From: an uncultured Gemmatimonadaceae bacterium
GTDB taxonomy: Bacteria; Gemmatimonadota; Gemmatimonadetes; Gemmatimonadales; GWC2-71-9
Direction of reading: 5' to 3'
NCBI GenBank assembly: GCA_964647615.1
Contig: CAZYIV010000009.1
Span: 42-64,041, forward strand
DNA: 64,000 nt
In this document: piece by piece, positions 972-39,231 of the stretch
Numbering within the stretch: position 1 is the first letter of the stretch
Layout: each line of letters opens with the position of its first letter
Made by a program: the position numbers and the translations under genes
The notes under the pieces: generated by a model
The model's input: only the letters and a program-made list of their open reading frames with translations
What the model was told of the DNA's origin: nothing
Databases searched by the model: none

Positions 972-3900
972 TCATGGAATCAGCTGGATCGCCTTGCCGT
1001 CGAACTTGTGCAGGTCCTTCACCAGCCCGCCCTGCATCGCCTCCTCGCGGCTGATCCCGAAGCCCACCTGGCCGCGCAGGTTGATCCGGCCCGGCTTGGC
1101 CGGCGAGGTGGCGGTCGCGGCCACCGGGCGGTCGAAGTCGGGCACGAACTGGATCGGGTCCGCGAACATCATCACCGGCATGCCGAGGAAGGTGGCGAGC
1201 GCCTGCAGCAGCGGGCGATTGCCGCCCTCCGCCACCTGGTACCACCAGAGGCGGCGGTCGGGAGTGGCGCGCTGCCGCTCACCGATGGCGTTGATCAGGG
1301 TAGCGACGCCCCGCATGCTCCGCAGGTTGATGCTTTCCCGGAAGGCCAGCAGGGACTCCATGGTGAGGGCCGGCGTCTCCGGCCGGGGCTCTGGGAGCGG
1401 CACCGAGAACCCCTCGGTGAGGCCCGGGTCAATCCGGGGGCTGAACCAGATGCTGGGGGTGGAGCCCGTGTGGAAGTCCATGCCGCCATATACGATGAAG
1501 TTCACCCGGGAGGCGGGCCGGGCCAGGATGTTGAGCAGCTCCAGGAAGCCTTCCACCTCCATGTCGTCGGTGGGTGGCACCATGCCGTTGCTGCGCTCGA
1601 TGATCGCCTTGAAGTCCACGGTGGACGGGTGCCAGGTGCCGTCCAGCAGCGCGCCGATCTCCTGCGCCACGGTGTTGAACCCGGTATCCCGGTCGGCCTG
1701 GCCGTAACACCAGACCTCCGCCACGGTGACCCCGCCGCTGCCACCACCGGCGCCGCCCTTGTCGGCCAGGCCGCCGGTGTCCGCCAGCAGGATGTCGCCT
1801 ACCGGCATCCCCGTGGCGCCGTGCAGCAGCCGGCGCATCGCGTCGCCGGTGAAGCCGTCGCTGCTACCGCCGCCACCGCCGGGCGAGCCCTCGATGCCCG
1901 GCATGAAGTCGCCGCTGCCGCCGCCGGTCCCGCCACCGCCGGACGATCCGCTCCCGCCACCACCACTCCGCACCCCCGCCGCATCCAGTGCGCGGGCGGT
2001 GTTGAGCGCGGCGCCCATCTCGGAGGCGTTCCTGGGCGTGCCGCCCTGGGCCGCGGGGCTCGCCGCCGTCGCGGCGGCCGCCGCGCCCTTGCCGGCGTCG
2101 ATCTTCCGCTTCTCCAGCTCGAACGACTGCGCCGCCATCATGTTGGCGCTGGCGATCTGGGCCTGGGTGGCCGCCGCTCCCGCGCTGGTGCCGGCCAGCG
2201 ACTGCGCCAGCCCGATGGTCGCGCCGAGCCCCGACATGTCGCGGAACATGCTGCCGTTCTGGACCGCGCCGAGCACTGCGCCCACGCCGGTCGGGTCGGG
2301 GAGCGAGGTGGGGCTCACGATGTTGAGCACCGGCTGCCCCAGCTGTCCCGGCCGCGCCTCGCTCGCCTGCGCCCGCGATCCCATGTTGATCGCCGCGATC
2401 TCCGGCGGCGCCAGCGGGATGGGGCTGTCCTGCCAGTTCCAGAACCGGGTGGCATCGAGCTTCTCGGCGGAGTTGGAGCGGCCCAGCACCGCCTCGCCGA
2501 AGACGCCGCCGGTGGGGATCGGCACCAGCTGCTCGGTGGTGGAGGGTCCGCCGAACTGGAGCCCGCGATCACTGAGCCACCTGCGCCACGCCGCCTGCGC
2601 CGCGCCGATGGCGCCGGCGGCGGCATCCGCGCTGAGGACGCTGTCGCGCCGGGCGGTGAAGGCCGGCATCCGGAGGACGACGTAGTTGCCGGCGATCATC
2701 ACCGGCTCCGGGTCCACCAGGTCCACCACCGGCAGCCCCTCGAACGCGAACGGCGAGAGCAAGAGCGCAAGCGTGGAGGCATCCAGCGAACGCCAGATCG
2801 CCTGGCTGTAGTGCAGCCGGTTGGCGTTGAGGTGCTCCACCAGCTCGGGGCGGAGCGCCTGGTCGCCGAAGCGCACCACCGTGAAGCTGGCGTTGGCGTT
2901 GAAGCTGATGGGAAGTGTCACGGGGAAAAGCGCGCCCCGATAGGTCAGCTCGAGCGTCACCTGTCCGGTGCCGGTGGCGGGGAGTGCGCCGGCGGTGACC
3001 ACCAGCTCGCTCAGTTCCGAGAGCGGCAGCGCGCTCGGCGCGCGCCACTCGAGCCCCGCATCCGAGAAGACCACCGCCGCGCCGCCGGTGGCCGGCTTGG
3101 CGGAGACGCCGGTGACCGGCACCCGACTGTCGCCGATGCGGAATACTGCGGCGGTGAGCGCGGCGTCGCGGGGAAGGAAGACGTCGCTGCTGCCGGGGCG
3201 CACCACGTCGAGGGAGACGATGCGCGATGCCCGCGCCAGCTCGATGGCGTCGAGCACCGGCCGCGGGTCGGTGACGGGGGGACGTGGCGGCGCCGGCGGG
3301 GTGGCGGGCGGGGTCGGGGGCGTGCCGCTGTCGGCGGTGGTGCTGTCGGGCGTGGTGTCGGTGGCCATACGGGCCATCATCGTGACCCCGCCGATCGTGG
3401 CGACGCCGAGCGCGCTGAGGAACGGCCGGCTGCGGACCAGGGAGGTGACCTTCACCGTCCCGAACTCGCTGCCGAGCATCTCCCGCGCCTGCCGGTCCAG
3501 GGCCGCGTCGGCGAGGACCCCCTGGTAGCGGCGGATGGTGGCCTCGTCGAAGGTCACCAGCTTCATGGGGATGAAGAGGCAGCGCTCGACCTGGTTCAGC
3601 TCCACCCGCACCCGGTACAGCTCCACCACCTCGTAGTACTGCACGGTGAGGGCGTGCATGTGGTTGTAGTTGGCCAGGATCCGGGTGGAGACGCTCTCGT
3701 GCTCCTGCTCCGAGACCTCCAGCACCAGCGAGGCGCGGCGGTCGCGCACCGAGGAGGCGGCCTGGTGGGTCGCGTCCATGACCTTCTGGCTCATCGAGGC
3801 GGCAAGGTCGCGGCTGCCGCTGGAGGTGGAGAAGCTCTCCGCGTGGGTCTTGGTCTTGGCGGCGGAGGCCGACCCGCCGATGGACACCGGGCCGATCGTG

Positions 3901-4826
3901 GCGCCGGCGCTGAGCCCGCCGCCGAAGGTGGTGGAGCTGCTGTCGGTGGTGGAGAAGCCGGTCTGGGCCTCGTTGGCGACCGCCTCCTGCACCTCGCTCA
4001 GCGCCCGGTTGTGGCTGGTGGTGTTGCTGAGCCGCTCCGACTCGCTGATCGCCTCGGTGCCGGTGGAGCGCGACTGGCGCGACCAGTCCACCACCGCGAT
4101 CCGGGTGCTCTCGCCCGGCGCCAGCGCCACGCTGTGCAGCAGGTTGCCGAGCGTCACGCCGTGCGCAAACCAGGACTGCGCGAACGTGAGCCGCGCTCCC
4201 ACCGCCGGCACGCTGAAGCCGAAGTCGTCCTGCACCGCGGGGGCGAGATCCACCGCGCCGGCCGACGCCAGGTCGCGGGTGGTGGTGGTCTCGACGTGGT
4301 CAATGACCACGGTGGAGTAGAAGCAGCGCTCGGTGGGGTACTCGCCCATCCGCGGCACCAGCTCGGCGGCGTCGTCCGCCGTGCCGGGGTCGGCGCCGGT
4401 GGCGACGGCCAGCACCAGCCGCGCGAACCGGAACGGCAGCCAGCGGCCCAGGTCGCCGACGGTGGCCACCTGCAGCGTGTCCCCCAGCGCGGTGGCGAGT
4501 TCGGGGGTGACGCCGCGGAGGGCGGTGAGCGGGGAGCCGGCCAGGGCCTCGATGGTGGGGGCGGGCTCCTCGGTGGCGTAGCCGCCGGGGACCCGGTCGA
4601 GGCGGCCCAGCGGGCCGGCGCCCTCGGACTCCGCCGCCTCCACGATCTCCCGCGCCCGGGCCAGGAGCGGCAGCGTCGCCAGGTCGAGGACCGTGCGGAC
4701 CCCCTGTCCCGCCAGCAGGGTCACCACCGGGTCGGTCACGCCCAGCAGGACGCTGACCTCCGAGTGCAGCACGGTCACCGGATCGAGGTGGGCGCTCGCG
4801 TGCCGCAGGCCGTCCTGGTAGCGCAT
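972..4826 (-). CDS. Large (1,284 aa) modular protein of unknown function
   Basis: Single uninterrupted ORF. It has distinctive non-low-complexity blocks (LAPGESTRIAVVDWSR, ILANYNHMHALTVQYYEVVELYRV), a Ser/Thr/Gly-rich core, a Pro/Thr linker, a long Ala/Gly linker and a 252-aa C-terminal domain. The opposite-strand ORF 1008-4859 is Arg/Gly/Ala-rich junk. Confidence 0.85.
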   Translation of the reverse strand: MRYQDGLRHASAHLDPVTVLHSEVSVLLGVTDPVVTLLAGQGVRTVLDLATLPLLARAREIVEAAESEGAGPLGRLDRVPGGYATEEPAPTIEALAGSPLTALRGVTPELATALGDTLQVATVGDLGRWLPFRFARLVLAVATGADPGTADDAAELVPRMGEYPTERCFYSTVVIDHVETTTTRDLASAGAVDLAPAVQDDFGFSVPAVGARLTFAQSWFAHGVTLGNLLHSVALAPGESTRIAVVDWSRQSRSTGTEAISESERLSNTTSHNRALSEVQEAVANEAQTGFSTTDSSSTTFGGGLSAGATIGPVSIGGSASAAKTKTHAESFSTSSGSRDLAASMSQKVMDATHQAASSVRDRRASLVLEVSEQEHESVSTRILANYNHMHALTVQYYEVVELYRVRVELNQVERCLFIPMKLVTFDEATIRRYQGVLADAALDRQAREMLGSEFGTVKVTSLVRSRPFLSALGVATIGGVTMMARMATDTTPDSTTADSGTPPTPPATPPAPPRPPVTDPRPVLDAIELARASRIVSLDVVRPGSSDVFLPRDAALTAAVFRIGDSRVPVTGVSAKPATGGAAVVFSDAGLEWRAPSALPLSELSELVVTAGALPATGTGQVTLELTYRGALFPVTLPISFNANASFTVVRFGDQALRPELVEHLNANRLHYSQAIWRSLDASTLALLLSPFAFEGLPVVDLVDPEPVMIAGNYVVLRMPAFTARRDSVLSADAAAGAIGAAQAAWRRWLSDRGLQFGGPSTTEQLVPIPTGGVFGEAVLGRSNSAEKLDATRFWNWQDSPIPLAPPEIAAINMGSRAQASEARPGQLGQPVLNIVSPTSLPDPTGVGAVLGAVQNGSMFRDMSGLGATIGLAQSLAGTSAGAAATQAQIASANMMAAQSFELEKRKIDAGKGAAAAATAASPAAQGGTPRNASEMGAALNTARALDAAGVRSGGGGSGSSGGGGTGGGSGDFMPGIEGSPGGGGGSSDGFTGDAMRRLLHGATGMPVGDILLADTGGLADKGGAGGGSGGVTVAEVWCYGQADRDTGFNTVAQEIGALLDGTWHPSTVDFKAIIERSNGMVPPTDDMEVEGFLELLNILARPASRVNFIVYGGMDFHTGSTPSIWFSPRIDPGLTEGFSVPLPEPRPETPALTMESLLAFRESINLRSMRGVATLINAIGERQRATPDRRLWWYQVAEGGNRPLLQALATFLGMPVMMFADPIQFVPDFDRPVAATATSPAKPGRINLRGQVGFGISREEAMQGGLVKDLHKFDGKAIQLIP

Positions 4827-4949
4827 CGGTTCCTCCGAAGGCAGGGCGGGACAGGATGAGATGGGGGAGACCCAGAGGGACGCGGGGCGGCGGCGGGGAT
4901 TCTCAGTCAGGCGGGGGGAGGGGGGGGTGACAGGGGTGGGGGGAATGCT

Positions 4950-5310
4950 GTCATTGCGAGGGCACCCCGGCGCCTCGGCGTCCCGCGGCTAAAGCCTGCT
5001 CTCCCCGGCCTCGGCGTCCCACGGCTAAAGCCTGCTCTCCCTCGCGCCCGAGTCGCGGCTACGCCGCTCCTGAGGGGCGCTCGGTCGTCGGCATCTGTCG
5101 CTGAAGCGACAACTAATCGCCCTACTGGCGCCTCAGGGGCGCTCGGTCGTCCTCGGCTCGCGCTGACATCGCGTCCCGCGGCTAAAGCCGCGACATCCCT
5201 GGCGTTCCCTGGGCGCGCGTCCCGCGGCTAAAGCCGCGACATCCCTGGCGTTCCCTGGGCGCGCGTCCCGCGGCTAAAGCCGCGACTCGGCATCTATCGC
5301 TGAAGCGATG
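4950..5310. repeat. REP array, left arm
   Basis: Repeated hairpin units cgcggc-taaa-gccgcg and gtcgc-tgaa-gcgac. It begins with gtcattgcgagggcaccccgg, the reverse complement of 6179-6199. Confidence 0.85.
5171..5286. repeat. 46-bp direct tandem repeat, about 2.5 copies, inside the left REP arm
   Basis: gcgtcccgcggctaaagccgcgacatccctggcgttccctgggcgc occurs at 5171-5216 and 5217-5262, with a partial third copy at 5263-5286. The copies abut with no spacers. Confidence 0.9.
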
Positions 5311-20070: not shown

Positions 20071-20526
20071 ATGAAACGGACGTTGCTTGCGCTGGCCGGA
20101 CTCGGCGCCATGCTGGCAGGTGGGCTCGTGGCACAGCAGCCCGCCGGTCGCCAGCCGACCATGGCCCCGAACGCCCAGCACCAGGTGGAGCAGGCCCAGC
20201 GCCTGCAGGAGATGCAGCAGCGGATGGAGCGGCTGGCCACCCAGCTGCGCGAGACCAATCGCTGGATGGAGCAGAACCGCGCCCAGCAGCAGTTCCGTGA
20301 CCTGGGCAAGGTGATGGAGCAGACGGGCGACCAGGTGCGCGACATGCTGCGGCAGATGGACCGGATCCACCAGGACCCCGACCTGCTGCAGACCCGCGAC
20401 CGGGACCGCGACCGGGATCAGGACCGGCTGCGTGACTTCGACCGGCTGCAGGACCGGGTCCGGGACATGACCCGTGACCTGGAGGAAGCCCACGACGTGC
20501 TGCGGAAGATGATCGGGAAGGAGTAG
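20071..20526 (+). CDS. Secreted coiled-coil protein rich in Gln/Arg/Asp (CpxP/Spy/ZraP-like periplasmic protein suspected)
   Basis: gggagga RBS lies 6 nt upstream. Signal peptide MKRTLLALAGLGAMLAGGLVAQQ. Heptad-like QAQRLQEMQQRMERLATQLRETNRWMEQNRAQQQ and an RDRDRDRDQDRLRD run. Confidence 0.6.
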   Translation: MKRTLLALAGLGAMLAGGLVAQQPAGRQPTMAPNAQHQVEQAQRLQEMQQRMERLATQLRETNRWMEQNRAQQQFRDLGKVMEQTGDQVRDMLRQMDRIHQDPDLLQTRDRDRDRDQDRLRDFDRLQDRVRDMTRDLEEAHDVLRKMIGKE

Positions 20527-20528
20527 GA

Positions 20529-21431
20529 ATGTCCGCCCGTTGGTGGGGACTCCTCGCGCTGGCGGCGGCCACCCCGGCCGCCGCCCAGCGGCTTGCCTAT
20601 GAGGGGTCGCTCGGCATGACCACCGGCCGCTACATCTTCACCACCCGCACCACCACCTTCTCCTTCTCCACCGGCTTCGCGGTCACCGCGGGCCGCCTCA
20701 CCCTCCGCGCCAGCCTGCCGGTCTGGATGCAGAACTCCACCGTGCTGACGGCGGGCGGCACCGGCGGCATGGTGCCGAGCGGTGGCTCCTCCGGCGGCAC
20801 GGTGAGTGACAGCGGGAAAGGGCAGGGCAGTGGTGGTGGGGGCGGCGGAGGCGGGGGAGGCGGAGGCGGGTCGGGTGGTGGCGGGATGGGCGGCCAGGCG
20901 GGCTCCCTGGCGCTCTCCCGGGTGGATGTACCCGCCAGCGCGTTCACCGACTACCGGGCAGCAATCGGCGACCCGCTGGTCGGCGCGAGCCTGACGCTGG
21001 TGGACGGCCGCCGGGTGCGGTTCGGGATCGGCGCGGCGGCCAAGGTGCCGCTCGCGGACACCGCGCACTACGGCACCGGCGCGTGGGATGTGGGGGGGAG
21101 TGCCTCGCTGTCGCTGCAATTGGACCCGCGCACCATCGCGGCACTGGACGGGAGCTGGTGGCACCTCGGTGACCTGCCCGAGCTCGACTTCCGCGACCCG
21201 TTCTCCGGCTCGCTCTCGCTCTCGCGGCTGCTGGGGCGGCGCTGGGCGGCGGCGGGCTTCCTGCGGGCCTCCACGTCGGCGGTGCCGGGCTTCGCCGCGC
21301 CGGCGACCGTGGGCGGGAGCCTGACGCACCTCGGCGGGACAGCCGCCGTCGGGATGGAAGTGGCGCTGGGCCTCACCGAGACCAGCCCCGACGTGGGCCT
21401 CACCGCCTACTGGCGGGTGCCGCTCCGCTGA
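20529..21431 (+). CDS. Outer-membrane beta-barrel protein (MetA/transporter-like family suspected) with an internal poly-Gly insertion
   Basis: Signal peptide ...ALAAATPAAAQ. Alternating beta-strand patterns run to the C-terminal GLTAYWRVPLR. GSGGGGGGGGGGGGGSGGGGMGG is encoded at about 20815-20895. It starts 2 nt after the upstream gene. Confidence 0.6.
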   Translation: MSARWWGLLALAAATPAAAQRLAYEGSLGMTTGRYIFTTRTTTFSFSTGFAVTAGRLTLRASLPVWMQNSTVLTAGGTGGMVPSGGSSGGTVSDSGKGQGSGGGGGGGGGGGGGSGGGGMGGQAGSLALSRVDVPASAFTDYRAAIGDPLVGASLTLVDGRRVRFGIGAAAKVPLADTAHYGTGAWDVGGSASLSLQLDPRTIAALDGSWWHLGDLPELDFRDPFSGSLSLSRLLGRRWAAAGFLRASTSAVPGFAAPATVGGSLTHLGGTAAVGMEVALGLTETSPDVGLTAYWRVPLR

Positions 21432-32624: not shown

Positions 32625-33728
32625 ATGACCCGACACATGCTCCTGGCCGCCCTCGCGGCGCTCACCCTGCCGGCCGGCCTCGGGGCGCAGGCCCCGGACG
32701 ACGCGCGGGTGATCCTGGTGACCTTCGACGGTGTCCGCACCGCGGAATTCTTCGGCGGGCTCGACAGCAGCATCGCGTTGCACAAGGACGCGAGCGGGGT
32801 GGACGACCCGGCGCGACTGCTGCGGGACTACGACGCCCCGGATGCGGTGTCCCGGCGGCGCCGCCTGATGCCCTTCTTCTGGGATTCGCTCGCCCCGCGG
32901 GGAATCGTCCTCGGCGACCCGGCGCTGGGGGGCGGCGTGACGATCACCAACCCGCACGGCTTCTCCGCCCCGGGGTACTTCGAGATCCTCACCGGCCAGG
33001 CGCAGCCCGACGTCACCTCCAACGACCTGCGGCGGTACCCGCACCGGACAGTGCTGGAGCATGTGCGCGATCGGCTGGGGCTGCCACCGGAGCGGGTCGC
33101 GGCGTTCGCCTCGTGGGAGAACTTCCGGGCCTACGTGGCGAGCCGGGACGGGGCGGTGTTCGTGAACGCCGGCTTCGACACCCTGCCGACGGCCGACCGC
33201 ACGCCCGCGCTCGATGGCCTGGTCCGACTGCAGGCCCGCGCGGTGCCGCCGTGGCACGGGGCCCGGCTCGACGCGTTCACCGGGGCGCTCGCGCTGGAGT
33301 GGCTGCGGACCCGGGACCCGCGGGTGCTCTATATCGCGTTCAACGACACCGATGACCAGGCGCACCCCCGGCGCTATGACGGCGTGCTCGACGCGTTGCA
33401 CGGCCTTGACGATTTCCTCCGGGAGCTGTGGCAGACGGTGGAGAGCCTTCCCGCGTACCGGGGCCGCACCACGCTCGTCCTGACCACCGATCATGGCCGG
33501 GGCCGGACCGGGCGCGACTGGACCGACCATGGCGCCGAGGTCCCCGGTGCGCGCGACATCTGGCTGGCGGTGATCGGTCCCCGGACCCCCGCGCGGGGCG
33601 ACGTGTCCGGTTCCGCGACCCAGGCCCAGGTCGCCGCGACGCTGCTCGCGGCGCTGGGGCTGCCGGCCGGCCACTGGCAGCCGGGCGCGGCGGGCCCGGT
33701 GGCGGCGGTGTGCGGGGACACTTGTTAG
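32625..33728 (+). CDS. Secreted alkaline-phosphatase-superfamily enzyme (NPP/phosphodiesterase-like)
   Basis: Signal peptide MTRHMLLAALAALTLPAGLGAQA. VILVTFDGVRTAEF (metal/nucleophile region) and LVLTTDHGRG (DHG motif). Confidence 0.65.
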   Translation: MTRHMLLAALAALTLPAGLGAQAPDDARVILVTFDGVRTAEFFGGLDSSIALHKDASGVDDPARLLRDYDAPDAVSRRRRLMPFFWDSLAPRGIVLGDPALGGGVTITNPHGFSAPGYFEILTGQAQPDVTSNDLRRYPHRTVLEHVRDRLGLPPERVAAFASWENFRAYVASRDGAVFVNAGFDTLPTADRTPALDGLVRLQARAVPPWHGARLDAFTGALALEWLRTRDPRVLYIAFNDTDDQAHPRRYDGVLDALHGLDDFLRELWQTVESLPAYRGRTTLVLTTDHGRGRTGRDWTDHGAEVPGARDIWLAVIGPRTPARGDVSGSATQAQVAATLLAALGLPAGHWQPGAAGPVAAVCGDTC

Positions 33729-33898
33729 GCGGCCCCCTGTGGCACGCGAGCGGCGGGGTGCGGGAGCGCTGCGGCAGTTCGGCGTTCATGAAACCGTCAT
33801 GTTCGCTGTCATCTCGGCAGTTGCGACCCCCCGGGGTGGCGGTCCATGAATTGCCGCACCTCGTATCGTCACGACTCTCCACCCCCCTCGAGTTTCGC

Positions 33899-34153
33899 AT
33901 GACGACGTCGCTTGCCCTGCCCGATCGTGTCCTCAACTGCCTCGCGGCCGTCGCCGAGACCGACGACGTGCGCTCGGATCTGAACCTGGCCCTGTACGAG
34001 GACCAGGTACTGGACTCGATGAAGACGGTGGAACTCATCGTCGCCCTGTCGCAGGAGTTCGGGCTGGACATCTCGCCGGCGGAGCTGGAGGCCGGCACCT
34101 GGGCCACGCCGGCCCGGCTGATCGCCTGGATTGAAGAGCGGGTGGCCGGGTGA
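33899..34153 (+). CDS. dltC: D-alanyl carrier protein (DltC-like acyl carrier protein)
   Basis: 84 aa. Phosphopantetheine Ser context QVLDSMKTVELIVALSQEFG. The stop overlaps the dltD GTG start (GTGA). Confidence 0.8.
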   Translation: MTTSLALPDRVLNCLAAVAETDDVRSDLNLALYEDQVLDSMKTVELIVALSQEFGLDISPAELEAGTWATPARLIAWIEERVAG

Positions 34154-35373
34154 CCCCATCCGCCCCGCCCGGCCGGGCGGGGGGCGGACAGCTGGCGCCG
34201 GCCGCTGTCGCGCTGCTGCTCACGGTGCTGGCGTCCGTCCTCGGGCTCCATGAAGCCCGCCAGTACGCGGCTCGACACCTCGACGCACTCCTCCCCCGGA
34301 CGTTCAAGCAGAAGTCCCTGGGCCTGGCCCTGCAGCGGCGCACCCTGTCGCAGGACCGGGTCCTCCTGCTGTACGGCAGCTCGGAGTTGGGTCAGCCGGC
34401 GGCGTATCGCGCGGCCGACTGGTTCCGCAGCGCGCCCACGGGCTTCCGGATCTCGCCGGTCGGCTGGAAGGGCGCGCTGCCCATCCATCATGCCCAGACC
34501 TTCTACGCCCTGGGCCGCGCGCTCGCGGGCCGGAAAGTCGTGCTGGAGGTGGCACCGAATGTCCTCACCCATCCCGACGGGTTCTTCACCCGCGGGATGT
34601 TCGCCGGCAACCTCTCGCCCCTCAGCGCGGGACTCGTGGCCTGGGGGCCGGTGGACGACCCGCTGGCGCGCCGCCTGGCGAAGCGCATGCTGGACTTCCC
34701 CAATGCCTTCACCACCAGTCCCCTGCTTCGCTTCGGGTTGGAGACGGTGGCCCACGGTCGGCCGGGAGACCGTGCCTTCGCCAACGTGATGCGGCCCCTG
34801 GGCCGGTTTCAGGTGGCGGTGCTCGGGGTAGAGGACGAGCTGCGGCTGTGGGGGGCGGGGTGGTTGGTGGGGCACAAGCCGCTCGAGGCCGCGGCCGTCC
34901 CTGGCGAGCCCGACTGGGACCGGCTGAAGGCCGTGGCGGAGTCAGTGTACCGGACCGAGGCGACCAACAATCCGTTCGGGATCGAGAATCCGCTCTTCGC
35001 GGCACGCGAGGAGTACTACCACTCCAAGCGGCACCACGCACCCCCCGTGCCCGATCTCGACACCCTCCCCGCCTGGCAGGACCTCGAGCTGGCGCTCGAC
35101 CTGCTCCAGCGCGCCGGCGCCGATCCCCTGGTCGTGGACGTACCTTACATGGGTCGGCTGCTCGACTACCGCGGCAGCACGCGCGCGGAGCGCCAGTACT
35201 TCTATGACCACCTGCGGGCCACCTGCCAGCGGCGCGGCATCCCGGTCGTCACCTTCGAGGAGCACGACGATGACCAGTGGTTCTTCCGCGACGACGGCGG
35301 GCACCAGTCCCCCAAGGGATGGGTATTCACCAACCAGGTCCTCGACGCTTTCTATCATGACCGCCTTCACTGA
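34150..35373 (+). CDS. dltD: DltD-family protein (SGNH-like esterase/acyltransferase of the D-alanylation system)
   Basis: N-terminal TM anchor, then VLLLYGSSELG (GSSE motif of the DltD family). The operon context is with dltC/X/A/B. Confidence 0.75.
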   Translation: MTPSAPPGRAGGGQLAPAAVALLLTVLASVLGLHEARQYAARHLDALLPRTFKQKSLGLALQRRTLSQDRVLLLYGSSELGQPAAYRAADWFRSAPTGFRISPVGWKGALPIHHAQTFYALGRALAGRKVVLEVAPNVLTHPDGFFTRGMFAGNLSPLSAGLVAWGPVDDPLARRLAKRMLDFPNAFTTSPLLRFGLETVAHGRPGDRAFANVMRPLGRFQVAVLGVEDELRLWGAGWLVGHKPLEAAAVPGEPDWDRLKAVAESVYRTEATNNPFGIENPLFAAREEYYHSKRHHAPPVPDLDTLPAWQDLELALDLLQRAGADPLVVDVPYMGRLLDYRGSTRAERQYFYDHLRATCQRRGIPVVTFEEHDDDQWFFRDDGGHQSPKGWVFTNQVLDAFYHDRLH

Positions 35374-35491
35374 CCCCCGGGTCCGCTTCGCGGCCCGCTG
35401 CGCGTTCTACCTCGCGATCCAGCTCGCGCTGGTGGTCATGGCGGTGGCGCATGCCTTCGACACCCCCAGCTTCATCTACCAGGCCTTCTGA
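35357..35491 (+). CDS. dltX: DltX-like 44-aa membrane micro-protein
   Basis: One TM helix (FYLAIQLALVVMAVAHAF) and the C-terminal PSFIYQAF, matching the FIYxxF tail I recall for DltX. It overlaps the dltD end by 17 nt and the dltA ATG by 1 nt. The track lists only a longer 95-aa ORF from 35204. Confidence 0.65.
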   Translation: MTAFTDPRVRFAARCAFYLAIQLALVVMAVAHAFDTPSFIYQAF

Positions 35492-36951
35492 TGAGCGACC
35501 TGCTCGCACGAATCGAGCGCTGGGGCGCCGCGGTCCCCGACCGGGTGGCCCACCGGAGTGGCGACCGGGTCATGACCTGGGGCGAACTGGTGCGGCGGGT
35601 GCGCGCGCTTGCCGCCTGGCTCGGCACCGCGCTGCCCGATGACGGCTCGCCGGTGGTGGTCCGGGGCCACAAGGAGCCGGAGATGCTGGTGGCGTTCCTG
35701 GCCTGCGCCCGGAGCCGCCACCCCTACGTGCCGCTCGACACCGGCCTCCCCGAGGCGCGCGCCGCGCGGATCGTGGAGCTGGCCCGCGCCCCGCTGACCC
35801 TGGAGCCGGCCCGCATCGCGGAGCTGTCCGCCGGGGACCACGGGCCGCCCCCGGAACGGCGCGTCGGCCCCGCCGACCTGCACTACATCATGTTCACCTC
35901 CGGCAGCACCGGGGACCCGAAGGGCGTGCCGATCACCCGGGGCAACCTGGAGCACTTCCTGGCCTGGATGATGGCGGAGCAGGCGCCGGGCGAGGGAGAG
36001 ACCTACCTCAACCAGTGCATCTTCGGCTTCGATGTGTCCCACATGGACACCTACCTGTCGCTCCTGACGGGCGGGACGCTGGTGAGCGTCACGAAGGAAC
36101 AGGTGGCCGACCTGCGGCAGCTCTTCACGATGCTGGGCGGATCGGGCGTGACCATCTGGGTGTCCACCCCCGCCTTCGCGCAGCTGTGCCTGGTGGAGAA
36201 GGGCTTCGCGCGCGGGATGCTCCCCGGGATGCGGAAGTTCCTCTTCTGCGGCGAGGCGCTGCCGCCGGATACGGTGGCCCAGCTGCTCGACCGCTTCCCC
36301 GGCGCCGAGGTGTGGAATACCTACGGCCCGACCGAGGCGACGATCGCCACCACCTCGCTCCGGATCGACCGGGAGGTGGTGGCACGGTACGCCCCGCTTC
36401 CCATCGGCCGGCCGATGCTGGGCAGCGAGGTGACGATCCTCGACGCCGAGCGGCGCCGGGTGCCGGAGGGGACGCGGGGCGAGATCGTCATCGCGGGACC
36501 CAACGTGAGCCCGGGGTACCTGCACCGGCCGGACCTCAGTGCGAAGGCCTTCTTCGAGTTCGAGGGGCGGCCGGCGTACCGCACCGGCGACTGGGGCCAC
36601 GTGCGCGACGGCCTGCTGTTCTGCGAGGGCCGGATGGATTTCCAGGTGAAGCTCCACGGCCACCGCATCGAGCTGGGCGACATCGAGGCGAACCTGTGCG
36701 CCATTCCCGGGGTGACCGGGGCCGCGGTGCTGCCGGTCCTCAAGGACGGCCGGGTGGATGCCCTCGCCGCCTACGTGATGCAGCCGGGGACACCGCCCGG
36801 CACCGACCGGAAGCGGGCCAGCGCGTTGCGCGCGGCGCTCAACGAGCGGATTCCCGCCTACATGGTCCCGCGCAAGATCGTCTTCCTCGAGGCGTTCCCG
36901 ATGACGCCCAACGGGAAGATTGACCGGAAGTCGCTCTCGACCACCCTGTGA
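35491..36951 (+). CDS. dltA: D-alanine--D-alanyl carrier protein ligase (adenylation enzyme)
   Basis: YIMFTSGSTGDPKGV, NTYGPTEATI, YRTGD, PMTPNGKIDRKSL. 486 aa with no condensation or thiolation domains. Confidence 0.85.
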   Translation: MSDLLARIERWGAAVPDRVAHRSGDRVMTWGELVRRVRALAAWLGTALPDDGSPVVVRGHKEPEMLVAFLACARSRHPYVPLDTGLPEARAARIVELARAPLTLEPARIAELSAGDHGPPPERRVGPADLHYIMFTSGSTGDPKGVPITRGNLEHFLAWMMAEQAPGEGETYLNQCIFGFDVSHMDTYLSLLTGGTLVSVTKEQVADLRQLFTMLGGSGVTIWVSTPAFAQLCLVEKGFARGMLPGMRKFLFCGEALPPDTVAQLLDRFPGAEVWNTYGPTEATIATTSLRIDREVVARYAPLPIGRPMLGSEVTILDAERRRVPEGTRGEIVIAGPNVSPGYLHRPDLSAKAFFEFEGRPAYRTGDWGHVRDGLLFCEGRMDFQVKLHGHRIELGDIEANLCAIPGVTGAAVLPVLKDGRVDALAAYVMQPGTPPGTDRKRASALRAALNERIPAYMVPRKIVFLEAFPMTPNGKIDRKSLSTTL

Positions 36952-38117
36952 CCCCGTACGCGTCGTTCAGCTATTTCGCGCTGGTCGCCCTGCTGGTGGG
37001 GCCGGCGGTCTGGCTCGGCTGGCGGGGCCGGGGCGCGGCGCGCTGGGTGCTCATCAGCGCCGCGCTCATGCTGGTGGTGCACCACGCCCCATCCGTGAAC
37101 GTGGTGCCGGGCCTCGGCCGGCTGCGCGACCTCTGGGTGGTGCTGGGCTTCGGGGTGTGGCAATACGGCCTGGCCCGCGGCCTCCTGGCCGCCGGCGGGA
37201 AGGGGGCACCGGCCTGGCGCTTCCGCCTGGCGCTCGGACTCGCCCTGGCGCCGCTGGTGGCGGTGAAGCTCGCGCCGGTGCTCGCCCCGGCGAGCCGGCT
37301 CGGGTTCCTCGGCGTGTCCTACGTGAGCTTCCGCGCCCTCGACGTGCTCCTCGGCGTGCGCGACGGCCTGGTCAAGGCGATCCCCGCCGGCTCCTATGCG
37401 GCGTTCGTGTTCTTCTTCCCGACCATCTCTGCGGGCCCGATCGACCGGTACCGCCGCTTCCTCCGGGACTACGACGCGCCGCGCAGCCGGGCCCAGCTGC
37501 TCGGCGACCTCGACACCGCGGTGTGGCAGCTGCACGTCGGCCTGCTGCTCAAGTTCATCCTCGCCGCCCTGGTGCAGCAGTACTGGATGGACCCGGCGGC
37601 GAAGCTCCACGGCTGGCCCGCCACGGTGTCCTACATGTACGCCTACAGCGCGTACCTGTTCTTCGATTTTGCGGGGTACAGCTCCATCGCGCTGGCGGTG
37701 AGCTACGCCTGCGGCATCCGGGTGGTGGACAACTTCAACCGGCCATGGCTCGCGACCAGCATCCAGGACTTCTGGAACCGGTGGCACATCAGCCTCTCGA
37801 CCTGGTTCCGGGACCAGATCTACATGCGGTTCCTGCTGGCCAACTCGAAGGGCGGGTGGATCCGGAACCGCCACTGGGCGGCGGCGGCGGGGTTCGGCGT
37901 GACCTTCCTGCTGATGGGGCTGTGGCACGGGGTGGCGTGGCACTACGTGCTGTACGGGCTGTACCACGCGGCGCTGCTGTCGGTGCACCAGGCGGCGGGC
38001 AAGTGGCTCAAGGCCCGGCCGTTCAGCGCCACCCGCGGGTGGCGGGTCGCGAGCTGGTTCGTGACCTTCAACCTGGTGTGCTTCGGCTTCCTGCTGTTCT
38101 CGGGCCACCTCGGCTGA
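36948..38117 (+). CDS. dltB: MBOAT-family membrane O-acyltransferase (DltB-like)
   Basis: [53 protein letters not shown] (conserved His region). The GTG start overlaps the dltA stop. Confidence 0.85.
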
Positions 38118-39087
38118 ACCCGCCGGCGGGTCGCAGCGCCCACCACGCCACCACCCCGAGCATCCCCGCCCGCAGCAGCTGCCCGGCCGCCGGGCCCGCC
38201 TCCAGCGCCGCCGCCATGTGCGGCGCCGCGAACCAGTAGAACAGTCCCGCACTCAGCGCCGCCAGCCGGCGTACCAGCCCCGCCAGCGTGGGCCGGCGCA
38301 GCGCCACGGCCAGCGCCACCACCAGCCACGCCACGGCCATCCCGATCAGCACCTGCCCATAGGCGCGGAGGGGGCTGACCGGCCCCGGGTCGGGGAGCAG
38401 GCCGAAGGCCACGATCAGCCCGGGAAAGCTCCCGGCGAACAGCCCCGGCACCGTCCGCAGCCACGGTCCCGATTGCCGGGCCCCGTCGGCCAGGGAGAGC
38501 AGCGCCTCGCGGGGCGCCCGGTCCATGCAGCCGACGGAGGTGCAGCGCACGCAGGGGCGGCAGCTGGTGTCGTCCAGGTGCAGCAACGGGTCGTGGCCGT
38601 AGAGCCGCTCGACCGGGAGGATGGGGCAGACGGCGTTGCAGAACCCGCCCTTGGCGGGCCGGGTGCGGCCGGCGAGCCAGGCCATCCCCGCGATACCCAG
38701 CAGCAGGGTGGCGAGCGCCGGGGCCTGGAACTCGAGGACCACGCGCCGGGCGGGAATCAGGCCCACCAGGAGCAGGATGCCGATCCGGTTGGCGGTCCGC
38801 CCCTCGGTCCAGCCGCGCCCCGGGACGCTCGCGGCGGCCCCGCCGAGGAGGTCCAGGGTGGCGAGGGGGCAGGCCGCCCGCCACAGGGACGGGGAGAACA
38901 GAAAGGAGAGTGGCAGGAGGGGGATCACGACCCCCCAGGTGAGCCGGAGCGTGGTGGCCGGCGCCAGCAGCAGCCCTGCGAGCACGGCCCCGAAGCCGGC
39001 GAGCCCGGGCCAGCGCAGCCAGTGGCGCCAGCGGTTGGGGGCCGGCCCGGTGGGGGCGGCGGAGGGGGCTGTGGAGGGGGCCGACAT
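38068..39087 (-). CDS. Polytopic membrane protein with a ferredoxin-like Cys cluster (4Fe-4S-binding, NapH/YccM-like)
   Basis: CNAVCPILP and [14 protein letters not shown] lie between hydrophobic helices. The start was chosen at MSAPSTAP (39087). The 3' end overlaps the dltB 3' end by 50 nt. The rest of track ORF 38068-41559 is antisense to glnN. Confidence 0.55.
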
Positions 39088-39231
39088 ACCCTGAGAGGGT
39101 GGGTCCACGGGCCACGGTGCGTCAAGTGGCGGGCCCCCGTCGCGCGGCTTGTTCCCCCGGCCCTGCTGGTTATCTTCCCGCCGCCAGTCCGCGCCCCGCA
39201 CGCGCGACACTTTTGCCAGAGGGCCCCACCG

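Follow-up and report, generated by a model that had tools for sequence, protein, structure and literature searches.

A complete, overlapping dltC-D-X-A-B cassette in a bacterium of the diderm Gemmatimonadales, predicted to encode a Dlt-type D-alanylation relay

The teichoic-acid D-alanylation machinery of Firmicutes, DltXABCD of Bacillus, Staphylococcus and Streptococcus, agrees with the locus described here in all five proteins and in the catalytic residues of every step, and in both the shuttle motif lies on a free-standing microprotein, DltX, and is not fused to DltB. The two differ in host, which in our case is a diderm Gemmatimonadales bacterium, in gene order (C-D-X-A-B), in the strong divergence of DltD (below the equivalog cut-off; 3.5e-12 to solved DltD structures), and in the acceptor, which is probably neither LTA nor WTA. 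Another partial relative is AlmEFG of Vibrio cholerae, which adds glycine or diglycine to lipid A. AlmG is a lipid A acyltransferase of the cytoplasmic face, and the Alm system has no MBOAT, DltX or DltD. An earlier note on this DNA drew an analogy to Alm-type systems, which is a loose one: in both, the aminoacyl group for modifying a Gram-negative envelope comes from a DltA-like ligase together with a DltC-like carrier protein, but the Alm transferase is of a different kind, and our cassette contains MBOAT, DltX and DltD and no AlmG-type gene.

Dlt loci are documented in several Gram-negatives, i.e., Bordetella, Dickeya, Pectobacterium and Photorhabdus (PMC3544676, PMC5541007, PMC9410548), and a Dlt system in a diderm is therefore less surprising than the earlier note implied. 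Dickeya dlt mutants are sensitive to polymyxin, the substrate being unknown (PMC3544676), and PMC9410548, citing Taneja 2013, describes D-alanylation of an unidentified outer-membrane component in Bordetella. These proteobacterial dlt/dra loci resemble ours in having Dlt homologues in a diderm and an expected role in resistance to cationic peptides (PMC3544676, PMC5541007, PMC9410548). They differ in layout, as Dickeya dadantii has dltBAC with dltD elsewhere while all five genes, dltX included, form one overlapping unit here. The hosts also stand apart: Dickeya, Pectobacterium, Photorhabdus and Bordetella pertussis (dra) are pathogens of another phylum, and ours is a free-living environmental bacterium. 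The MBOAT-SGNH O-acetyltransferases (PatA/PatB, AlgI/AlgJ/AlgX and WssH-type) likewise pair an MBOAT with an SGNH transferase and carry an acyl group over the inner membrane, by way of an acyl-Tyr in an FxYxxF motif, to a periplasmic polymer (PMC12148441). Those systems draw on acetyl-CoA, bear the motif as a fused C-terminal part of the MBOAT and do without carrier protein and ligase, whereas our cassette has it on a separate DltX, uses DltC as donor and includes a DltA ligase.

The window, a 64,000-nucleotide stretch of an uncultured Gemmatimonadaceae genome, contains five intact dlt genes at 33899-38117 on the forward strand, read directly from the sequence in the order dltC-dltD-dltX-dltA-dltB, with no further gene in the cassette:

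33729..33898, + strand: putative promoter and 5' UTR upstream of dltC (intergenic, inferred)
33899..34153, + strand: dltC, 84-aa D-alanyl carrier protein (TIGR01688, Pfam PP-binding)
34150..35373, + strand: dltD, 407-aa SGNH-like transferase with N-terminal membrane anchor and periplasmic catalytic domain (Pfam PF04914)
35357..35491, + strand: dltX, 44-aa single-pass membrane microprotein (FIYQAF tail, position, sub-threshold Pfam PF12459)
35491..36951, + strand: dltA, adenylating ligase with D-Ala pocket (NF003417)
36948..38117, + strand: dltB, 389-aa MBOAT (TIGR04091)

The GTG start of dltD overlaps the dltC stop in a GTGA, dltD and dltX overlap by 17 nt, dltX and dltA share 1 nt in a TGATG, and dltA and dltB meet in another GTGA. 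Since all four junctions overlap, the genes are read as one complete, translationally coupled Dlt-type system. The components, order and overlaps given in the earlier note were thus all recovered on re-reading the sequence, as were its motifs LDSMKTVEL, YGSSEL, FIYQAF, FTSGSTGDPKG, NGKIDRK and a 15-residue stretch. The putative promoter region (33729..33898) was searched for a sigma-70 consensus site and an Rfam element, and neither was found; a block GCGGTCC..GA.TTGCCGC at 33839-33857 is common to the window and its Gemmatimonadales relatives L001 and L002.

The gene order is a cyclic permutation of X-A-B-C-D in which the X-A-B core is kept. The earlier note called the operon reordered, and indeed the canonical order is not present, but the layout is not peculiar to this genome. 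It is shared by the related loci L001, L002, L008, L011, L016 and L047, outside Gemmatimonadales in Anaerolineae (L011, L016) and one Bacillota MAG (L008), and a D-C-X-A-B variant occurs in about 25 Verrucomicrobiota loci, often with two to three dltD copies. The layout is a clade habit and characteristic of a broader, non-Firmicute set of Dlt systems. DltC identity amounts to 78-82% in L001 and L002 and 43-61% in other phyla. No neighbouring gene family apart from the dlt genes themselves was conserved across the 46 related loci.

The family assignments of the proteins go far beyond chance. DltA scored 503.6 bits against NCBIfam NF003417 (curated cut-off 476) and 443 bits, with 44% identity, against Bacillus cereus DltA (3dhv). 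We compared the specificity residues at pocket positions taken from PMC4176424 and PMC8972799. The window enzyme has F180, D181, V182, M185, C253, T281, I285 and K476, giving F-D-V-M-C-T-I-K against F-D-L-M-C-T-V-K in B. cereus (F196/D197/L198/M201/C269/T297/V301/K492). Conservation of the D-Ala pocket identifies DltA, at the level of its residues, as an amino-acid-activating ligase and not the fatty- or aryl-acid ligase that the earlier note had considered as an alternative. Only L198V and V301I differ from B. cereus, in all three Gemmatimonadales sequences. Because of these two differences from the Firmicute enzymes, a shifted preference is conceivable, with glycine, D-serine or L-alanine carried in place of D-alanine; PMC12071552 indicates that D-Ser is usable to some extent by Firmicute DltA. 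We regard such a shift as improbable, as there is identity at the enantiomer-selecting Cys (kept in 32 of 32 related DltA sequences), at the Asp and Thr that bind the amino group and at Met201, both substitutions are conservative and change residue size in opposite directions, and 25 of the 32 related enzymes have the full F-D-L-M-C-T-V signature. D-alanine is accordingly retained below as the predicted substrate.

The remaining proteins carry the residues expected of their families. DltC scored 60.2 bits against TIGR01688 (cut-off 52.35) and 7.8e-9 against Pfam PP-binding, with the phosphopantetheine-attachment Ser inside LDSMKTVEL. DltB scored 392.5 bits against TIGR04091 (cut-off 375) and aligned with PDB 6bug (3.9e-65) over both His motifs; its His280 and His327 are the counterparts of Streptococcus thermophilus DltB His289 and His336, and its C-terminus (...FSGHLG) has no FxYxxF motif of its own. 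That motif, described as part of an acyl-shuttle relay in PMC12148441, is fitted by the FIYQAF tail of DltX, which follows a single transmembrane helix, and Tyr41 is presumed to be the D-Ala acceptor. The Pfam PF12459 match of DltX (E = 2.3e-4, 21.1 bits) is under the gathering score of 25, but the micro-ORF is supported nevertheless, because 26 related loci have an equivalent, ending in P.F.YQ.F, directly upstream of dltA. The tail is conserved in 27 sequences, and the equivalent in L047 has a precomputed PF12459 match. DltD passed Pfam PF04914 (E = 7.2e-40) but reached only 118.9 bits against the NCBIfam equivalog TIGR04092 (cut-off 150). It aligned with PDB 6pfx (3.5e-12) at GSSEL and D..H; its catalytic residues are Ser77/78 of YGSSEL and D381/D382-x-x-H385 (DxxH), and both motifs were invariant in alignments A1 and A2. 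Hydropathy profiles gave a single hydrophobic segment each for DltD (N-terminal, around residues 16-34) and DltX, five for DltB and none for either DltA or DltC, and hence fit the expected Dlt topology. As judged from these alignments, every known residue of the D-alanine relay is present in the five proteins.

The cassette lies between an alkaline-phosphatase-like gene and glutamine synthetase III, in a variable slot; the same AlkP...GSIII-HK/RR backbone occurs without dlt in L043, L044 and L045. The earlier note began the span of the system at 32625 and pointed to the phosphatase-superfamily gene upstream. The five dlt genes of that span stand, but its start belongs to the alkaline-phosphatase-like gene, which we rejected as a member of the system. 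It does adjoin the operon, but it is a widespread core Gemmatimonadota gene outside the Dlt system, and as it occurs in a backbone without dlt its adjacency is no evidence of a functional link. The cassette itself would be an accessory, horizontally acquired insertion, only 6 close DltD clusters having been found against 709 AlkP-family matches, and probably belongs to an environmental Dlt group with further members in Verrucomicrobiota and Chloroflexota. Its patchy distribution in Gemmatimonadota and the variable slot could suggest a recently transferred or decaying passenger without function in the host. This seems to us very improbable: every ORF is intact and retains its catalytic residues, the overlaps between the genes have been kept, G+C (0.70-0.73) and GC3 (0.89-0.96) match the host, and across three diverged genomes (the window against L001 and L002) the four large genes have dN/dS values of 0.13-0.31 (dltC about 0.14, dltA about 0.2, dltB about 0.3). 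The sequence shows all five proteins with their catalytic residues, coupled in one unit and under purifying selection.

Gemmatimonadales, to which the host belongs, is a diderm lineage. In DltD the nearest relatives are MAGs of this order, with 70-71% identity, and in dlt-bearing L001, a close relative, a gene for a TonB-dependent receptor OMP lies upstream of the cassette at a distance of two genes; TonB-dependent OMP genes also adjoin the locus in L043-L045. The earlier note had based its diderm host on a beta-barrel OMP and many lipoproteins among the surrounding genes. The host assignment holds, but the candidate beta-barrel OMP ORF (20478-21431) had no match in a Pfam search, and no outer-membrane marker in the window has Pfam support, so the diderm inference leans on taxonomy and on the OMP genes of syntenic relatives.

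On this basis we consider it likely that the five genes are one operon for a working Dlt-type D-alanylation relay, its chemistry inferred by homology to the characterised Firmicute pathway. Cytoplasmic DltA would adenylate D-alanine and load the phosphopantetheine arm of DltC, and the MBOAT DltB would hand the D-alanyl group through the inner membrane to the Tyr in the FIYQAF tail of DltX. DltD, membrane-anchored and facing the periplasm, would receive it on the GSSEL serine and esterify a hydroxyl of an acceptor on the periplasmic side of that membrane.

The acceptor is probably something other than a classical teichoic acid. A conventional system, in which this organism or the whole Dlt group makes an LTA-like, membrane-anchored polyol-phosphate polymer as acceptor, would agree with the presence of all five components, including DltX and DltD, of LTA-modifying type, and with the operons of the group in lineages generally taken as monoderm (Anaerolineae L011 and L016, Bacillota MAG L008). 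Gemmatimonadales and Verrucomicrobiota are diderm, however, with the TonB-dependent OMP genes noted above near the locus. No ltaS, tagF or tarL gene was found within the window or the related loci, 46 loci having no linked LtaS- or TagF-like gene, and the sole alkaline-phosphatase-superfamily neighbour is a soluble core gene of generic fold. Moreover, DltD is the most diverged component: between phyla it is 28-35% identical, whereas DltA reaches 50-61%. We therefore judge a conventional dlt system unlikely and prefer a non-teichoic acceptor. Within the window, the cassette has no linked gene for acceptor synthesis. In a rough split, LPS/LOS en route to the outer membrane and a periplasmic or exported polysaccharide are equally tentative candidates, a membrane-anchored teichoic-like glycolipid carries about half the weight of either, and the remainder falls to protein, lipoprotein or peptidoglycan.

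Such a relay would be expected to make the envelope less negative and to confer tolerance of cationic peptides or metals. With a complete Gram-positive-style D-alanine machine predicted in an uncultured soil Gemmatimonadales bacterium, a known but poorly understood phenomenon would reach a new phylum.

Five consecutive dlt genes joined by short overlaps had been described in the earlier note, and both the genes, all on the forward strand, and the overlaps were borne out by the ORF listing and by direct reading of the junctions.

The dlt cassette and its flanking genes in the window
32589/32625-33728, + strand, secreted alkaline-phosphatase-superfamily protein (AlkP), core Gemmatimonadota family, backbone gene
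33899-34153, + strand, dltC, from the ORF listing and direct reading
34150-35373, + strand, dltD, GTG start inside a GTGA that overlaps the dltC stop
35357-35491, + strand, dltX, 17-nt overlap with the end of dltD
35491-36951, + strand, dltA, 1-nt overlap at a TGATG junction
36948-38117, + strand, dltB, second GTGA overlap
38068-39090, - strand, orphan polytopic membrane protein with a Cys cluster (CNAVCP...[12 protein letters not shown])

The G+C content is about 72% across the whole window, and the GC3 values of the five dlt genes, 0.89-0.96, are host-like. The nearest relatives of DltD, at 70-71% identity, were found in two Gemmatimonadales MAGs (loci L001 and L002). The dN/dS values against the two closest relatives were 0.14 for dltC, 0.20-0.23 for dltA, 0.30-0.31 for dltB and 0.27-0.31 for dltD; they cover these four genes, dltX being 44 codons long and partly overlapping dltD. 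A short block at 33839-33857, GCGGTCC..GA.TTGCCGC, situated about 42 nt 5' of the dltC ATG, is common to the window, L001 and L002, and may be a candidate promoter or operator. The region upstream of dltC gave no Rfam match and no sigma-70 consensus site.

Three of the products scored above the curated cut-offs of their families, namely DltB (TIGR04091, 392.5 bits, cut-off 375), DltA (NF003417, 503.6 bits, cut-off 476) and DltC (TIGR01688, 60.2 bits, cut-off 52.35). DltD passed Pfam PF04914 with E = 7e-40 and stayed under the cut-off of 150 of the NCBIfam equivalog with 118.9 bits, while DltX reached 21.1 bits in Pfam PF12459, under the cut-off of 25. Known structures were matched by DltA (3dhv from Bacillus cereus, 443 bits, 44% identity), DltB (6bug from Streptococcus thermophilus, 3.9e-65) and DltD (6pfx, 3.5e-12).

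The Pfam score is by itself marginal for dltX. The genome scan, made with a DltD-derived pattern from the narrower of our DltD alignments (A2) on one genome per GTDB species, returned 42 loci. Of these 42 loci, 26 have a micro-ORF ending in F[IV]YQ[GAE]F-stop directly 5' of dltA. The 27 DltX sequences all share one Tyr within the hydrophobic segment, as well as the tail P.F.YQ.F, and in one related locus, L047, the equivalent 48-aa product has a precomputed PF12459 match.

In the published relay, D-alanine passes from DltA to DltC-Ppant, DltB, the Tyr of the DltX FxYxxF motif, the DltD Ser and finally the acceptor (PMC12148441). The D-Ala pocket of B. cereus DltA is formed by F196, D197, L198, M201, C269, T297, V301 and K492 (PMC4176424, PMC8972799), to which correspond F180, D181, V182, M185, C253, T281, I285 and K476 in the window enzyme. 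The enantiomer-selecting Cys is thus retained, and only two residues differ, V standing for L and I for V; the exact F-D-L-M-C-T-V signature occurs in 25 of 32 related DltA enzymes. The earlier note had left room for a ligase that activates a fatty or aryl acid. Since the pocket is conserved, the ligase is predicted to be an amino-acid activating enzyme of the D-Ala type instead. In DltB, H280 and H327 align with H289 and H336 of 6bug, and the protein ends in FSGHLG and carries no shuttle motif of its own. DltX consists of a single hydrophobic helix followed by DTPSFIYQAF. In DltD a single hydrophobic anchor lies at the N-terminus; the YGSSEL serine and D381/D382-x-x-H385 are present, and its motifs were invariant or nearly so in alignments of 9 and 24 homologues. 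Each step of the relay has its residues in the window proteins, and as far as can be read from sequence the relay is intact.

Two known types of system were compared with this one, and it belongs to neither. AlmEFG is without MBOAT protein, DltX and DltD, whereas all three are present here; PatAB/AlgIJ-type systems have a fused shuttle motif and use acetyl-CoA.

No Pfam-supported outer-membrane marker was found within the window. The beta-barrel OMP of the earlier note is probably the ORF at 20478-21431 (+), which combines a signal peptide with a long poly-Gly stretch and a sequence that alternates in the manner of beta-strands, and which falls into no Pfam family. The evidence for an outer membrane comes from relatives. 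Locus L001 has a TonB-dependent receptor (Plug and OMP beta-barrel) two genes 5' of the same cassette, and the same receptor is found in syntenic relatives that lack dlt. The named homologues of AlkP are from Gemmatimonadales or Gemmatimonadota too, and Gemmatimonadota are described as Gram-negative. The proposal that the host is a diderm is therefore reasonable, by virtue of the receptor in relatives and of the phylum rather than of the window genes. The machinery in the window is a true Dlt system, kept under selection, in a probable diderm.

The surroundings of the cassette were compared with loci that have the same backbone. Three of these, L043, L044 and L045, show the order OMP-LacI-AlkP-[variable]-GSIII-HK/RR...PAD without dlt (GSIII, glutamine synthetase III; HK/RR, kinase/response regulator), and in L045 GSIII follows directly after AlkP. 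The downstream backbone of the window is the same (GSIII, HK/RR, PAD_porph), and dltCDXAB occupies the variable slot. The dlt cassette is accessory, an insertion to which the neighbouring genes do not belong. In the window the slot between AlkP and GSIII spans 33729-39200. L045 has nothing in this slot. In L043 it contains a periplasmic-binding protein and S21, to which L044 adds a cold-shock protein; L051 has a membrane ORF and S21 there, and the window, L001 and L002 have dltCDXAB. The slot borders in the window showed no integrase, no tRNA and no shift in composition.

The earlier note had drawn attention to AlkP, 170 nt upstream in the same orientation; this adjacency is not significant, as the gene occurs in the backbone without dlt. 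AlkP has 709 database homologues, mostly from Gemmatimonadota, and over 120 of these reach 50% identity; for DltD no more than 6 clusters reach 57% identity, the window's own included. The AlphaFold model of AlkP (pLDDT 90) gave only generic superfamily matches at a TM-score of about 0.5, to the YejM/PbgA periplasmic domain, NPPs and sulfatases, and there was no PDB sequence match. A role as LtaS- or OpgB-like partner was rejected on account of the dlt-free backbone, the number of homologues and the generic fold.

The reverse-strand ORF at 38068-39090 is convergent with dltB, and the 3' ends overlap by about 50 nt. It has no Pfam or NCBIfam family and is found together with dlt in the window, L001 and L002. 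Its homologues are from Gemmatimonadota and one 'Neomarinimicrobiota' MAG; the one in L051 lies beside GSIII/S21 with neither dlt nor AlkP, and other homologues are in unrelated contexts. It was rejected as a component of the cassette for these reasons, and the L051 homologue in the same region places it in the backbone. The database gene call is shorter, 286 aa, and the true start may be downstream of 39090.

Elsewhere in the window, ORF 972-4988 (-) encodes 1339 aa with a GC3 of 0.94 (strong coding) and has no Pfam domain at E <= 1e-4. Several genes of alpha-glucan/glycogen metabolism are found on the contig at 8301-10121, 48969-50924 and 60537-63891 (alpha-amylase, GH57 4-alpha-glucanotransferase-like, GH57 branching enzyme, starch/glycogen synthase). 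They are ordinary metabolism, unrelated to dlt.

To obtain the gene arrangements, all loci were searched by tblastn with the five proteins of the window. The order C-D-X-A-B in Gemmatimonadales was that of the window, L001 and L002, and C-D(-D)-X-A-B was found in Anaerolineae (L011 and L016), the Bacillota MAG L008 and L047. About 25 loci from Verrucomicrobiota or Chthoniobacterales have one to three tandem copies of dltD in the order D-C-X-A-B, and in L003 and L006 dltD is divergent from C-A-B. The earlier note had called the operon reordered relative to the Firmicute X-A-B-C-D. The order C-D-X-A-B itself stands, but not its significance: it is a cyclic permutation, it recurs in other carriers and the X-A-B core is always kept, so the layout is a property of the whole non-Firmicute group. 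In an NJ tree of DltA, built with a single outgroup and without support values, the Gemmatimonadales sequences fall inside a mostly verrucomicrobial group. The DltA tree also places L024, a record titled Akkermansia muciniphila MAG, tightly with L030 from Chthoniobacteraceae, and the species label of that record is probably wrong.

Between phyla, identities were 50-61% for DltA, 43-61% for DltC, 42-50% for DltB and only 28-35% for DltD, which is the fastest-diverging component and the sole duplicated one. If the specificity for the acceptor lay in DltD, divergence together with duplication would be the expected pattern. Two or three tandem dltD paralogues before dltC-X-A-B were observed in L004, L005, L010, L012, L013, L016 and L048, all from Verrucomicrobiota apart from one Anaerolineae locus, which suggests that several acceptor specificities are served by one DltA/B/C/X set. 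A dltD homologue with no dltA, dltB or dltC in flanks of about 7-10 kb was seen in L007, L017, L027, L032, L034, L035 (Chthoniobacter flavus Ellin428), L037 (which also has a DltX-like ORF) and L050; either the other dlt genes lie elsewhere, or these DltD-like proteins use another donor system.

All-against-all clustering of flanking ORFs from 46 related loci gave no recurrent neighbour for acceptor synthesis; the recurrent ORFs were those of dlt, shadow ORFs and, now and then, a response regulator or kinase. None of the window genes points to an acceptor. DltD works on the periplasmic side of the inner membrane, where any acceptor must therefore be exposed; LPS not yet exported, glycans that are lipid-linked or periplasmic, an LTA-like glycolipid, peptidoglycan and lipoproteins are the candidates. 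In one verrucomicrobial-type locus (L049, 1-21209) D-C-X-A-B lies inside a polysaccharide locus with Wzy_C, Poly_export (Wza) and glycosyltransferase genes, which hints at an exported polysaccharide as the target of D-alanylation in that lineage.

Homologues of dlt are documented in Gram-negatives, and the target of Dlt in teichoic-acid-free bacteria has been a question since they were found in Bordetella, Dickeya and Photorhabdus. Our literature search found no description of dlt in Gemmatimonadota, and for Verrucomicrobiota nothing more than DltB named in passing for Akkermansia phylogroup AmIV. The window holds a Dlt system of known type in a new phylum, and the environmental group to which it belongs is unstudied; Gemmatimonadota too possess the relay with all five proteins, among them the DltX shuttle, which has been understood only recently. 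Because the broad operon group is dominated by soil Verrucomicrobiota, the acceptor question reaches well beyond a few pathogens, and DltD, as the most diverged and most often duplicated component, is the place to look for acceptor specificity. Tentatively, and with slightly less than even confidence, we propose that Verrucomicrobiota/Chthoniobacterales, Chloroflexota and rare Gemmatimonadales share a large environmental Dlt group that has hardly been studied, with its own layout, dltC and dltD before dltX-A-B, and a fast-evolving, often tandem-duplicated DltD; this group would D-alanylate non-teichoic acceptors such as LPS core/lipid A, periplasmic glucans or Wzy-type exported polysaccharides. 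If this is true, D-alanyl esterification would be a general means of charge tuning in the envelopes of soil diderms, with DltD paralogues setting the acceptor specificity.
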